Assembly (NCBI GenBank): GCA_951406725.2
Contig: OX597839.1
Location: 11,594,001-11,658,000, forward strand
DNA: 64,000 nt
Source: Octopus vulgaris
Taxonomy: Eukaryota
Reading direction: 5' to 3'
The notes under the pieces were generated by a model, which saw nothing but the letters and a program-made list of their open reading frames with translations, was not told the origin of the DNA and did no database searches. Shown piece after piece: positions 11,626 through 63,194 of this stretch. The translations under genes were made by a program, and so were the position numbers. How positions within the stretch are numbered: position 1 is the first letter of the stretch; each line of letters begins with the position of its first letter.

Positions 11626-11812
11626 AGGGAAAGTTTACGAAAATAAACAAAAGACGAAGGCAGGTAGAGTACAAACAAACAGATGTATTAGTATAACGTT
11701 CAGGAATAGGAAAAGTCTTTTACGTTTCGAGCCTACGCTCTTCGACAGAAAGATACACAGAAAAAAACAAGGAGAGAAAAAAATGCGTGTAGGAGCTAAC
11801 GATCTATCATGG
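11626..11812 (-). mobile_element. Short Penelope-like (pseudo-LTR-type) element carrying a hammerhead motif; other copies at 33813-33943 (-) and 57501-57686 (+)
   Basis: Three alignable copies share the 3' end ...CGTAAACT[CT]TCCCT. Two of them abut (TA)n directly, and each contains the hammerhead-like motif. Confidence 0.6.
11716..11753 (-). ncRNA. Minimal type I hammerhead-like motif (core CUGUCGA)
   Basis: Minus strand reads TCTTT-CTGTCGA-A-GAGC-gtag-GCTC-GAA-ACGT-A-AAAGA: 5-bp stem I, 4-bp stem II, palindromic ACGT stem III. Confidence 0.6.
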
Positions 11813-13657
11813 AAACTACAAGCCCAATAATGATATACTCTCTTTTTGGAACTGGAGATTATGATTTGAGGGAATTTAGCTGCTTTTTCTAGCAGGTTAG
11901 CCATTGAAGCTATACATATGAACGAACCAGGTTACTGTGTCTATTCAAGGGTCACAGTGTCCGTTGACACGTCACAGTTCTCTGTTGAAGCCATGTCGGT
12001 TGTTATAAGGTTTGGGGATGCGCCCCTTTAAGAACTGTAAACAGTTTTGCTCGTTCGTGGAGCAGATGGGTGGGCAGGTGGTAAGGTAGGTTGGCTGGCA
12101 GACAGCGGTGGGTCACACACACTGGTGGGCGGTTTAGTCGAGAGGGACTTCGGATCGTATGAAGAGCGGGTGTTTAACGACGGATATAGTTGACGTCTTG
12201 TGTTTGTGTATACACACACACATATACAAATATAACACGTGTGTGTATATATTTATATATACATATAGTCACATAGTTTCCTTCCCTTCTGTCGATGTTC
12301 GGGAGGGTGTGTTGAAAGTGGAGTTGTCAGGGAACAGTTTTAGGGGTGTTGGGTGGCTGCTGCTGCTACCACCGCTACTACTACATCCCTTTTCACTCCT
12401 GGGTGGAGAAGGATAGATTTCAGTCGTTCTGTTCCCCTAATTTAAAACGGGGAGGGTGGGCCCCTTTCTTCTCCGCTCCGCCCCGTCCTTCCCCCGACGC
12501 CACTACTTCTCGTCTCATCACGCTATGTTTATCACTTGGTGGTTGGTTGCTTGCTTACTTGATGGCGGTGTACTACTACTACTACTACTACTACTACTAC
12601 AAGTGTGTATTTGTTTTAGACCAATTTACATGCTTGACTGCTGTTAATGAATCTGTTATAATGAAATGTGTCGCCTGTCGCCAAAACAACAACACTTACT
12701 ACCTCCACTAGAACTCCTTCGCTCCTCTACGCCGTCCCCACGACACGCATACACGCGGATGCGCACACACAGGTACGCGTGGTGGTCGGTGAGATTTCGC
12801 CGGTGGCGACGATGAGCATGAAAATGTATGAGCAACGTAATTTCAACAGATCCATCTTTTGTACATCTTTGAGCTGTCTCGTGCTGGACTGGCGTGACAC
12901 AATGTGACAGGCTAGTGGGTACGCGTGGAGGGGTTAGGAGAGTGGGGCCTTGGGATATCGGGCATCGGGGGGGGGGAGAAAGCCCAGACCTGGGTTGACT
13001 TGGTACTTTATCTATCGACTCCCGAAAGAATGAAAAGCAAAGTTCATTGACCCCAGTGGGATTTGAACTGAGAGCACAGTTTACGGGGGACGTAAACATA
13101 CCAACTCCGGTTGTCAAGCGGTAGTCAGGGGTCAAACAAAGACACATGTATGTATATATAAAGGCGTGTGGCTTAGTGATTGGGGTTTTTTCAATCGTAA
13201 GCCCAATTTCTGGCGGTGCATTATGTCCTTGAGCAAAACATTTTATGTCATGTTGCTCCCGTTCACACAGCTGGCAAAAACTGAGTAGTACTTGTATTTC
13301 AAAGGGGCCAATGGGGATATTTTACCCTCGGCCATATTGTTAATCCTCTCTCTATTATACAAATATGACCTTTACAATAACCCCTAAGTAATATCCCCTT
13401 CCATGTGTGTCTGTGTGTCCCATATGTTTTTGGTTTTATCGTCACATTGTATCAAGGCTGCAGTGAAATTATTGGCATCTTTCGTTGTTTTTCTTCAGAT
13501 TTGACATTTAGCATTTAGGATAATTAAAAATATATATTTCTTTATTGCCCACAAGGGGCTAAACATAGAGGGGACAAACAAAGGGATTAAGTCGATTACA
13601 TCGACCCCAGTGCGTAACAGGTACTTTATTTACCGACACCGAAAGGATGAAATATAT

Positions 13658-14638
13658 GGGCGCAGGCGTGGCTGTGTGGTACGAAGCTTGCTTCTCAATT
13701 ACATGGTTCCGGGTTCAGTCCTACTGTGTGGCACCTTGGGCAAGTGTCTTCCTCTTTTAGCCTCGAGCCCATCAAAGCCTTTGTGAGTGGATTTGGTAGA
13801 CGGAAACTGAAATGTAGATATTTGTGTGTTTGTGTCTCTGTTTGCCCCACTACCACCACCATCGCTTCACAACTGATGCTGGTGTGTTTATGTCCGCTTA
13901 ACGTAGCGGTTCGACAAAACTGGCCGATAGAATAAGTTCAAGGCTTGCAAACAATATGTTCTGTGGTCGATTTGTTCGACTAAAAACCCTTGGATCTTTT
14001 CGGTTTGAACGGCAGTTTTTTCTAGCGGTGTCATATGAAATTGTCACCCATAATTATGACTCTAGTATCGATCTATTGCATTTCAATCTCTTTTAGGGTT
14101 AGGGGTGAGGGAAGGGTATCTTATTTTCTTCACAAATATAAATAAACCCAATCTGTTTCTTAAACGAGGGACATATTCATATGGCACAGAATGTTTTTTA
14201 CCTCAATAGGCGTCATTGATTGGTTGAAATTGCAAAAATTGAAGAAAAAACAACAAATATCTTACAAACCATAGAATTTTCTCAATAAAAGCCAAGAGAA
14301 AAAGATGTTTTATAAACACATTCTACCAGTATACGAAGTTTAAAAGTGTTTAGTTACGTGGAAATTATTTTAAAAAATTGCCGGTCAAACCGAAAAGATC
14401 CCAAATGTATATCTTTGTGTGTTTGTGTCTCTGTTTGCCCCACTACCACCACCATCGCTTCACAACTGATGCTGGTGTGTTTATGTCCGCTTAACGTAGC
14501 GGTTCGACAAAGCTGACCGATAGAATAAGTTCCAGGCTTGCAAAGAGTACGTTCTGTGGTCGATTTGTTCGACTAAAACCCTTTAAGTTGGTGCTACAGC
14601 ATGGCCGCAATCAAATAACTGAAACAAGTAAAAGAATG
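13658..14638 (+). mobile_element. SINE family A copy containing a MITE and an internal duplication
   Basis: Head at 13658, tail near 14630, MITE at 13992-14401. Confidence 0.8.
13992..14401 (+). mobile_element. Second copy of the ~410-bp MITE
   Basis: GGATCTTTTCGGTTTGAACGGCAG ... TTGCCGGTCAAACCGAAAAGATCC. The interior aligns to 9958-10365. Confidence 0.88.
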
Positions 14639-15258
14639 ATATATGTATACCATTGCTGCTTCAGTCTGTCCAACGAATAATCGTTCGCCACCGTCGCCCT
14701 CGGGAGGTTTTTCACAACTGTCCTCTGTTAGGGCGGGGGCTTGTTCTGGAAAAGAAGAAAAGCAAGCAAGCGAAACCCCTAAAAAGAAAATGGCCCTTTA
14801 AATCTACAAGTGATCCCTAAAAGCTACAGTAAATGCGTTTTTATTTACTTAATTATTTGTTTATTTCAATTTCAAGCAACATAACTATTCGCCATTATGA
14901 TGATGTTCAAGTGTATTTTACACGCGTCAATCCAGCTGATTAAAACATCCCTTGAGTGCGTGCGAGTCTCGGGTTATTCGGGCTGTTTGTCCCCCTCCTT
15001 CTCCTGTCTTCTAAACCCCATCAAAAGAGACACAGCCTGCGCCAAATAAGAATACGCAGGTCGTTGGGTTTAATTCTAAATTAGAAACGTGGATAATGGT
15101 AAAACCATTCCTGATTCGTTGTTCTTGCTTTCCCTAGCAGCAGCAGCAGCAACATGAAAGAGCTAAAAGTGAATTTCAATCCCATCTTTGCCCTAATTCT
15201 TCAAAAATATATATCACCAGCAACTGTTTGTGTGTGTGTGTGTTGTGTTGTTATTATT

Positions 15259-61521: not shown

Positions 61522-61930
61522 GGCGCAGGAGTGGGTGTGTGGTAAGTAGCTTGCTTACCAACCACATGGTTCCGGGTTCAGTCCCACTGCGTGGCATCTT
61601 GGGCAAGTGTCTTCTGCTATAGCCCCGGGCCGACCAATGCCTTGTAAGTGGATTTGGTAGACGGAAACTGAAAGAAGCCCGTCGTATATATGTATATATA
61701 TATATATATGTGTGTGTGTTTGTGTGTCTGTGTTTGTCCCCCCAACATTACTTGACAACTGATGCTGGTGTGTTTACGTCCTCGTAACTTAGCAGTTCAG
61801 CAAAAGAGACCAATAGAATAAGTACTAGGCTTACAAAAAGAATAAGTCTCGGAGTCGAGTTGCTTGATTAAAGGCGGTGCTCCAGCATGGCCGCAGTCAA
61901 ATGACTGAAACAAGTAAAAGAGTAAAGAGT
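61522..61930 (+). mobile_element. Full-length ~410-bp tRNA-derived SINE, family A (CORE-like octopus SINE)
   Basis: tRNA-like head (TGTGTGG... and GGTTCAGTCC boxes), CORE-like segment GCA[CT]CTTGGGCAAGTGTCTT, central microsatellite and GTAAAAGA-repeat tail. More than 20 copies or fragments occur in the window. Confidence 0.85.
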
Positions 61931-62123
61931 ATACATACATATTCACTCTGTGTGTGTGTGTGTAAGTTTATCTTTTCATTTTCAAATTGCTATTTCAAAA
62001 GGTGTATTTGGGATTGTGTGAGTTCTTAGTATGATGGTGCATAAGCATGTTTGTATACATTATCTCATCATCATATATATATATATATCTATAGAATAAT
62101 ATGTGACAATTATTCAATAGCCA

Positions 62124-62186
62124 AGATAAAACTCTGAGTTTCGGATGCCGAGGTGGAAATCCACAACACCATCTCTTCGGTTATCT
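62124..62186 (-). ncRNA. Type I hammerhead-ribozyme-like motif (variant core CCGAAGA)
   Basis: Minus strand reads AGATAA-CCGAAGA-GATG...CATC(C)-GAA-ACTC-A-GAGT-T-TTATCT. This gives a perfect 6-bp stem I, a stem II with an inner GTGG/CCAC hairpin, a palindromic stem III and a GUU cleavage triplet. It lies in a ~135-bp insert (about 62093-62226) flanked by (TA)n. Confidence 0.65.
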
Positions 62187-63194
62187 GGTCTCTGTCTTTC
62201 TTTTGTTATCTTACTGTTTACACTAATATATATATATAGACACACACATACACACATGTGTTTGTGTAAAATACTGTATTAATATGAATGGTCCATCTAG
62301 TGAATATCTTGTGCATATAAGAGTGTATATTAAACAATACAGTGATAAGAAGAGCATATATACAAAGTGTATGTTTGTGATTATTATCATTATAGTGTCT
62401 ATCTTAGCACTGGAGTGTATACATACAGCAATGAGTATATATAAAGTAGTTATCTAGTGTGTTGCATATGGTTTGTGTTCTTACCAACACGCACATACAT
62501 GTGTGTGTGTGTATATATATGTATATATATACATATATATATATATATATACACATACATGTGTGTGTGTGTATATATATATGTATATATATACATATAT
62601 ATATATATATATACACATACATGTGTGTGTGTATATGTATATATATATATATATATATATATATATATATATATATATATATCTTCATTCTGTGATAGGT
62701 CTGAATGCATATGTAACACAATTTGCTCTGATGGAAATTCTCTAAAGTGTTTTTCTTAATCTATTTAGATTTGTTTCTCAGATTCTAAGCTTTCAAGTAC
62801 TAAATTGATGTCTAATATAATAGTATCTACCTACTCCTTCCGCCTACACCCCGCACCATCCATCTCCACTCCACCCAATACCCCCCCCCCCCGTCTACCA
62901 TTTTCTTCACCCTACGCACCACATCTACCATTTCCTTCACCATGTACACCAGCACATACCAATTTCTTTAGCACATACACCACTCTGTACCATTGTGATG
63001 ATGTCTTAGGAATCTATTTATTTTATTCCAGAGAACATGTCCTGTACAAGAGAAGAATCATCATCTTGTTCTACCATTAATGCTGTTGCTTTCATTATCA
63101 TCATCAATATCACCAACACCATTAATAACCACTGTTACAACAGCATTTACGTGTTTACTTGAGCTCCTAGAAATAGCACCCAAAACACCCTTAA

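Follow-up and report, generated by a model that had tools for sequence, protein, structure and literature searches.

The short non-coding inserts of the window, by which we mean the whole 64,000-nt stretch analysed here, are probably 5′-truncated or inverted 3′ ends (pseudo-LTR, or pLTR, pieces) of three Penelope-like element (PLE) families, one of which, family A, has U in place of A at position 6 of its hammerhead core (U6) family-wide, a core that is probably still under selection. We infer the PLE parentage, the steps of insertion and any cleavage from what was observed, namely the hammerhead motifs and their palindromes, common 3′ ends at TA runs, an inverted pair with a tail, high abundance, and a fixed U6 beside a free position 7 (N7). 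The common 3′ end, the 5′ truncation and the AT-rich or (TA)n target expected of PLE insertions were all found. Two or three families had been proposed in an earlier note on this DNA, and three unrelated elements (A, B and C) indeed lie in the window, as follows.

11626..11812, minus strand: family A copy 1, ~187 nt, 85-90% identical to the other copies, likely PLE pLTR-derived
11716..11753, minus strand: minimal type I hammerhead motif of copy 1 with U6 core (C3 at 11748, U6 at 11745, N7 at 11744, position 17 at 11721)
33814..33943, minus strand: family A copy 2, (TA)n on both sides, 5′ end truncated a few nt upstream of the motif
33903..33939, minus strand: minimal hammerhead motif of copy 2, core CUGUAGA, stem I of 4 bp
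53240..53275, minus strand: tail of element C, 36 nt, on the left arm only
53276..53429, minus strand: left arm of element C, an inverted copy that starts within the GAAA strand of the motif
53428..53598, plus strand: right arm of element C, starting with the U3-A8 core, with (TA)n at its end
57503..57685, plus strand: family A copy 3, ending 3′ in a TA run and flanked on both sides by an 11-12 nt TA/ATC-rich repeat (a possible target duplication)
57561..57596, plus strand: decayed hammerhead motif of copy 3, U6 and G12A, stem I of 3 bp
62089..62225, minus strand: element B, between TA runs, one copy with no second in the window
62124..62186, minus strand: type I hammerhead motif of element B (one strict match, 0 in 100 shuffles)

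The motif at 11716-11753 combines a 5-bp stem I, a CUGUCGA core, an unpaired A9.1, a GAGC/GCUC stem II, GAAA, the palindrome ACGU and A17, and the motif at 33903-33939 is the same apart from its CUGUAGA core and 4-bp stem I. The family A motif of copy 3 stands at the position given in the earlier note, but its fold is not intact: AAAA replaces GAAA (G12A), with a stem I of 3 bp, a defect that had been missed, and we therefore regard this motif as broken. Element B has the core CCGAAGA (U4C), a 4-bp stem II with a 1-nt bulge, a 9-nt palindromic stem III, U17 and a 6-bp stem I. The remnant noted previously near 53429 was recovered from 53428 on the plus strand as the motif of element C, with the core UUGAAAA, a 2-bp stem II, ACCGGU and A17, the 5′ strand of stem I being lost. 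A strict descriptor (at most one core mismatch) matched the window three times (11748, 33935 and 62180), where 100 block dinucleotide shuffles gave 0.01 matches on average, confirming the folds at these places, and a looser descriptor found the site at 53428 against a mean of 0.02 in 100 such shuffles; both descriptors were fitted post hoc, with the motifs already known. An earlier, stricter descriptor gave two matches in the window, and 2 of 30 shuffles gave a match. That the folds arose by chance, or that element C is a MITE-like hairpin, is very improbable: the motif of element C lacks stem I and its stem II is just 2 bp long, and its post hoc descriptor still matched 2 of 100 shuffles, but A and B exceed the shuffles, and the arms of C stand head to head over their full length with a tail on one side. 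A G10.1-C11.1 pair at the end of stem II, GAAA, a palindrome at 15.1-16.1 and NUH were found at 11748, 33935, 62180 and 53428; the 57.5-kb copy departs at GAAA. An unpaired nucleotide between 9 and 10.1 is present in family A and absent from elements B and C, and this nucleotide is missing from some published alignment rows too (Cervera 2014, PMC4209133). These motifs may cleave as dimers, and pairing of the palindromes in trans was computed to be possible (-3.7, -9.2 and -10.3 kcal/mol). Rfam covariance models returned no hammerhead family at E <=10 for 11640-11830 or 62095-62225, and for the whole window there was no hammerhead among the 150 matches listed of 466.

From the core to the cut site, family A matches the minimal hammerhead of an Acropora digitifera PLE except at position 6 (Cervera and de la Pena 2014, PMC4209133). 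It shares with the consensus of that paper the type I arrangement, the unpaired 9.1, the 4-bp stem II with G10.1-C11.1, the palindromic ACGU for helix III, the U-rich 5′ flank and NUH; the PLE hammerheads described there are, as here, mostly solitary genomic copies, and longer palindromes occur among them as well (PMC4209133). A6 stands in 44 of 44 alignment rows seen in the supplement (PMC4209133), as against U6 in family A. Compared with the published core, CUGANGA or U3-A8, family A departs by U6 and element B by U4C, and element C alone fits, as the already published U3-A8 (PMC4209133). U4C is known from a viroid (Perreault 2011, PMC3088659) and in element B possibly reflects decay. The earlier statement that no core in the window is the canonical CUGANGA holds literally, although the core at 53 kb is a covariant already in print and the change at 62 kb was seen in one copy. 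The cephalopod "radiation of variant ribozymes" that had been suggested is overstated, because A matches the coral PLE motif, U3-A8 is published and U4C is one copy, and the only variant core shown to be family-wide is the U6 of family A. Short-stem-III hammerheads of PLEs were reportedly treated by Lunse, Weinberg and Breaker (RNA Biol 14:1499). Like the present motifs, short-stem-III PLE hammerheads have a very short palindromic stem III and supposed dimer cleavage, as related in a review (PMC6765202). Among the papers listed in our literature searches, judged by title and the opening of the abstract, we found no U6 hammerhead family, which the 2017 short-stem-III collection or Repbase/Dfam may already contain, and none of the papers listed for octopus or cephalopod hammerheads or Penelope ribozymes treats family A. 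Eleven exact motifs of 10-17 nt from A, B and C gave 0 matches in the consensus files for Naiad (cephalopod, File S5), Chlamys and Hydra, where divergence or line breaks could mask a match.

(TA)4+ runs lie within 5 nt of 7 of the 10 element ends compared with 3.3% of positions, an enrichment that is partly circular because the ends were picked by us. The TA microsatellite borders described previously are present at these ends but not at the 11.6-kb copy, whose nearest (TA)4+ runs lie 631 and 442 nt off its ends. A repeat search of the window was dominated by microsatellites. Element C is an inverted adjacent pair with arms identical in 152 of 155 columns, head to head along their full length, and a one-sided 36-nt tail, which fits the PLE insertion pattern in element C alone; a one-sided tail of 30-40 nt is a PLE signature (Craig 2021, PMC8557442). 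The 5′ truncation, the adjacent inverted copy, such a tail and the AT-rich or (TA)n targets are shared with described PLE insertions (Craig 2021, PMC8557442; Frangieh 2024, PMC11167929), in which reverse transcription starts roughly 85-92 nt past the cut site, similar to the start at about 95 nt proposed for family A. No PLE ORF remnant was found in the window by tblastn with endonuclease-region queries only (best E 0.32). The proposal of Penelope-derived, TA-associated, dimer-type minimal hammerheads is supported by the architecture and by the coral PLE family, but not by a PLE ORF in the window. A pattern of the B type matched 120 loci in genome contigs, apparently by chance, and blastn gave no match to A, B or C there at E 1e-3; elements B and C are represented by one locus each.

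A pattern modelled on the family A motif, with positions 6 and 7 left free, retrieved 76 metagenome loci, all 76 with the canonical A6, and these agree with the Acropora PLE row in the supplement of Cervera 2014 (PMC4209133). Remnants of an endonuclease ORF (GIY-YIG) lie upstream in 16 of the 76 loci, three query loci being counted among the 16, and the single ORF piece scanned gave a weak Pfam GIY-YIG match (E 0.0018, below cut-off). Pairs 2 and 3 of stem I are C-G (33/42) and G-C (27/42) in the metagenome family versus U-A in 3/3 window copies, that is, two double changes between the two families, whose flanks have no detectable homology (nhmmer with the metagenome flanks against the window: none outside the motif, best E 3.4-3.8). 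An inverted copy is present at 25 of 63 distinct metagenome loci, with the junction inside the motif in 19, as in element C; since the search pattern demands an intact motif, we do not take the clustering of inversion points there, across the 76 loci, as a sign of mechanism. The family A pattern had 0 matches in viral contigs, and its U6-only form had 0 matches in genome contigs.

U6 is present in all three window copies and family-wide in run data from two organisms; the runs matched family A in 19,261 contigs (X4), 4,105 contigs (X10), 92 raw reads (X22) and 2 raw reads (X21); contig depth does not equal copy count, and the X21 and X22 reads give no copy number. At copy 1, X4 depth is in the millions across 11617-11802 versus about 50 past 11927, and the upstream flank is low-copy. 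In the window, the family A copies are solitary and about 22-24 kb apart, and a sequence-only model found no fourth copy there, its further matches being microsatellite-level. Of the sites listed for X4 and X10, N7 varies most (1.93 and 1.77 bits, all four bases), and position 17 varies between A and U, with U in 16% and 19% of depth in the two runs and G17 absent among the rows listed. Reversion to A6 stays below 5% in X10 (4/4 A>T rows lie at other sites) and is absent among the X22 rows listed. Loose ends in X4 cluster at the motif edges (381 contigs at 11752; 237, 165 and 162 at 11709-11712), exactly where the subfamilies start diverging, and past the 3′ end the loose-end consensus is a TA repeat (163 contigs in X4, 24 in X10 and 24 reads in X22). 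Taken together, the family-wide U6, the free N7, A or U at position 17 and the divergence at the edges suggest that the U6 core is under selection; minor core changes may also exist, because there are variant rows beyond those listed (X4 has nine, including an A>T row, and X10 has three). Stem II varies in the loop alone, and in stem I the changes listed, at 11717 and 11753, disrupt pairs, so the covariation check named in the earlier note turned out against it, with zero compensatory changes in family A stems among the listed variants. An alternative core alignment, with a U inserted and N7 deleted, would break C3-G8 and was therefore rejected.

Cleavage of the U6 core at some rate as a dimer is, in our estimate, slightly short of an even prospect. 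A serious possibility, although not one we favor, is a PLE origin in which U6 abolished or impaired ribozyme activity, the motif surviving only as a folded or protein-binding element or being carried along by successful masters. The natural A6C hammerhead of phage Bcep176, with position 6 changed as in family A, cleaves poorly with Mg2+ and better with Mn2+ (PMC3088659, PMC7151607), but it is one phage sequence with C rather than U, and neither a dimer-type retroelement motif nor high-copy (PMC3088659, PMC7151607). Insertion in vitro also does not require the hammerhead, and in an anole element the protein binds RNA from near stem II (PMC11167929). In addition, a U6-A15.1 pair is predicted for the monomer with probabilities of 0.42 and 0.61 (the neighboring pair in 42 A6 comparators, which differ in stem I as well, has a median of 0), a weak lead as an off-state because it is only about 0.2 kcal/mol better than the open fold. 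Loss of the ribozyme is at odds, however, with an N7 that varies four ways, a position 17 that stays within NUH, the lack of other core changes among the rows listed and the start of subfamily divergence at the motif edges. The fuller reading is unlikely as a whole: a working natural U6 hammerhead, maintained by selection in two or more organisms while subfamilies split several times, in which U6-A15.1 would keep the monomer off and the RNA would be switched on only when dimers form or when the element's protein or an ion, for example Mn2+, acts on it.

Rather than arising by random truncation, family A may be a non-autonomous unit in its own right, ~200 nt long, constant at its 5′ end and mobilized by a PLE, which we regard as plausible but below an even chance. 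The 5′ starts fall within about 2 nt in 2 of 3 window copies, depth is flat from 11764 to 11786, and the loose ends at 11812 agree for about 11 nt and then differ (agreement 0.44-0.49); however, copy 2 is truncated at the motif, the query is blind past 11812, and a mixture of subfamilies could equally lower the agreement. That the inserts are monomers shed by a non-LTR retrozyme, with circular RNA from tandem arrays elsewhere, is improbable. Non-LTR retrozymes are likewise short non-coding hammerhead units related to PLE pLTRs, from which they derive, and solo monomers exist (PMC7229834; bioRxiv 10.64898/2026.07.22.740005); the unit size here falls inside their 150-450 bp range (PMC7229834), and in X4 a single record, of depth 24, connects 11812 with about 11640. 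Published retrozymes, in contrast, are canonical type I hammerheads in tandem (PMC7229834), unlike the minimal motifs found here, no tandem copy or array was seen within the window, and there is no high-depth head-to-tail joint among those listed, although TA-spaced tandems could escape. With solitary copies and no such joint among those listed, the "retrozyme-like" system put forward earlier is unsupported.

On the preferred reading of truncated or inverted PLE 3′ ends, the GIY-YIG/RT protein of an autonomous partner would nick AT-rich or (TA)n DNA, and reverse transcription would begin internally, on the downstream side of the hammerhead; in A this start would lie about 95 nt beyond the cut site. 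Element C would have two starts, at distances of about 140 and 175 nt, which give the one-sided tail, and an early stop of copying or fold-back would leave stubs of 130-190 nt or head-to-head pairs. To be functional, the hammerhead would have to be in a tandem master transcript, in which a pair of palindromes would form helix III, probably with the help of protein; we predict that solitary copies such as those in the window are passengers. Spread of a dead core is conceivable, because changes at position 6 reduce hammerhead activity (Perreault 2011, PMC3088659) and hammerhead mutants leave insertion in vitro unblocked (Frangieh 2024, PMC11167929).

That PLE stubs at TA repeats carry minimal hammerheads of the dimer type has been known in general since 2014; what is unusual is a very abundant family A with U6 in nearly all copies. 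If the U6 family cleaves, the natural hammerhead core would be widened and descriptor searches would undercount the ribozymes of animal genomes, and if the working-U6 reading is true, searches demanding CUGANGA would miss a very abundant ribozyme family. If it does not cleave, family A would be a natural experiment in which a PLE family amplifies heavily with a dead yet conserved motif. Either outcome would inform the question of what PLE hammerheads do.

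The window is AT-rich, microsatellite-dense DNA of animal type, and no plausible long coding frame was seen in its ORF list. Sequence comparison within the window resolved its five hammerhead sites into three unrelated elements: family A, an insert family of three copies carrying a minimal type I hammerhead with U at core position 6 (U6), and the single-locus elements B and C.

Hammerhead-bearing elements of the window (family A copies share 85-93% identity and a common 3' end)
11626-11812, minus strand: family A copy
33814-33943, minus strand: family A copy
57503-57685, plus strand: family A copy
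53240-53598, two arms, head-to-head: element C, no second copy in the window
62089-62225, minus strand: element B, no second copy in the window

The hammerhead folds reported in the earlier note were recovered in place. Using descriptors fitted post hoc to motifs already seen, the sites at 11748, 33935 and 62180 were matched with one core mismatch allowed and the site at 53428 by a looser descriptor, far above the shuffle means (0.01 hits in 100 shuffles and 0.02, respectively). The bordering of the inserts by TA held for most of them: a TA run lies within 5 nt of 7 of the 10 element ends (background 3.3%), the exception being the 11.6-kb copy. Elsewhere, the window contains a single tRNA-Lys(UUU) gene at 32234-32308 on the plus strand (Rfam 64.5 bits; ARAGORN), a 970-bp CAT-rich array (4018-4989) and a minisatellite of 35-bp period (2684-3215). 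Dispersed SINE-like repeats (families D15, D17, D19, I1 and I2) occur at 8676, 15235, 32522, 49131, 49796 and 56322, from 2156 to 61528 (11 copies), and at 10729-11074 and 61492-61837; one family carries a tRNA B-box-like word, and they may be octopus SINEs.

The region 11400-12300 was compared with four sequencing runs. Depth was very high from 11617 to ~11812 and near single-copy beyond; the end of another repeat, of lower depth than family A, lies at 11400-11490. On this region 19,261 contigs were placed from X4, a run of organism B, and 4,105 from X10, a run of organism A; a minor share of these belongs to that other repeat, contig depth does not equal copy count, and the contigs are non-independent copies. 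The loose-end consensus past the family A 3' end was TA repeat in three runs. Among the rows listed for X4 and X10, N7 was the most variable site (four bases; 1.93 and 1.77 bits), and at position 17 U accounted for 16% and 19% of the depth, with no row showing G17. Among the variants listed there was no row for position 6; by a tally of row kinds, A6 is below 5% in X10 and does not appear among the variants listed for X22. Nine rows outside the listing in X4 (one an A>T) and three in X10 may hold minor changes of the core. Depth over the motif was two to three times that of its flanks and loose ends concentrated at its edges, 11752 and 11709-11712, indicating from sequence that related subfamilies have retained the U6 motif while their surroundings were swapped. 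We infer that U6 is older than the subfamily splits and that the motif was constrained thereafter. The loose ends at these edges correspond to at least one further subfamily with the U6 motif and other sequence on both sides. The covariation check proposed in the earlier note went against it within family A, as no compensatory change was seen among the variants listed and two listed stem I changes disrupt pairs. The 57.5-kb hammerhead is broken, carrying G12A and a stem I of 3 bp. A low-depth organism B contig (11790-12195; X4 record 16) joins unique flank to ~22 nt of the element 5' end, and the 11.6-kb insertion may be common to both organisms. In X22 reads, the last 60 nt of the element (11619-11678) are partly duplicated around a TA-rich spacer, resembling a partial tandem of a Penelope-like retroelement (PLE).

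A search pattern that held stem II and the GAAA-CGU strand constant and allowed any base at positions 6 and 7 found 76 metagenome loci of a coral-type family. All 76 have A6 (68 CUGACGA, 5 CUGAAGA, 3 CUGAUGA) and conform to the PLE-associated row for Acropora in part of the Cervera 2014 supplement (PMC4209133), where A6 stands in 44 of 44 rows. Endonuclease-ORF remnants lie upstream in 16 of the 76 loci, including 3 that supplied queries, mostly ending ~80-140 nt from the motif. The one remnant piece scanned gave a GIY-YIG match below the Pfam cut-off and contains a CX2-5CxxC-type cysteine motif, assigned to Neptune/Nematis and Naiad in sections of Craig 2021 (PMC8557442). Together, the matching motif and these remnants argue that the RNA motif of family A occurs in the PLE 3' region of another animal. 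No homology was found between the flanks of the two families, so the likeness is of the motif only; two double changes in stem I separate them. Head-to-head pairs joined at the hammerhead are common in the coral-type family (e.g. L007, L011-L013, L015, L018, L035, L042 and L043): an inverted copy is present at 25 of 63 distinct loci, 19 joined inside the motif, with pattern-based ascertainment bias possible.

The arms of element C are identical at 152 of 155 columns and meet inside the hammerhead motif, and an extra 36 nt precedes the TA run on the left arm only. Sections of Craig 2021 (PMC8557442) count a neighbouring copy in inverted orientation and a one-sided tail of 30-40 nt among PLE features, and the tail has been traced to two internal RT start sites in part of Frangieh 2024 (PMC11167929). 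With a UUGAAAA core, a 2-bp stem II and stem I missing, the motif is plausibly a hammerhead remnant and no more; the U3-A8 covariant in this core has been known since 2011 and 2014 (parts of PMC3088659 and PMC4209133). If transcribed, 53276-53598 is predicted to form a near-perfect ~150-bp hairpin (-218 kcal/mol for 53240-53600), a possible dsRNA or editing substrate. The type I fold of element B is a good one: stem I has 6 bp, the palindrome is 9 nt long, the core carries U4C and stem II is bulged. Insect PLEs have been described with longer palindromes and with a bulge in helix II (portions of PMC4209133), and a viroid with U4C (a section of Perreault 2011, PMC3088659). Because element B is a single copy, its U4C may be a family trait or decay.

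Most likely, the inserts are stubs left where PLEs inserted into AT-rich DNA by target-primed reverse transcription, which would begin 3' of the hammerhead and then stop early or fold back. Cleavage would require two copies paired by way of the palindrome, and would be weak and perhaps protein-aided. Lying 22-24 kb apart, with one on the opposite strand, the family A copies of the window are predicted passengers. The retrozyme-like system suggested earlier is not supported by the window and the runs compared. Hammerheads changed at position 6 are less active, and with A6C the preferred ion becomes Mn2+ (parts of PMC3088659 and PMC7151607). U6-A15.1 pairing in the monomer has predicted probabilities of 0.42 and 0.61, with a small energy gain; that the U6 core retains some cleavage is a prediction to which we give slightly under an even chance.

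No published Naiad consensus matched the exact motifs of the window elements, and no published report of a U6 hammerhead family was found, the 2017 short-stem-III survey and repeat databases being outside that scope. Family A is predicted to work like the PLE minimal hammerheads but its core differs at one position, which by sequence makes it a variant of them rather than a plain member. Overall, the finding is real and mostly known, with one testable variant, U6.
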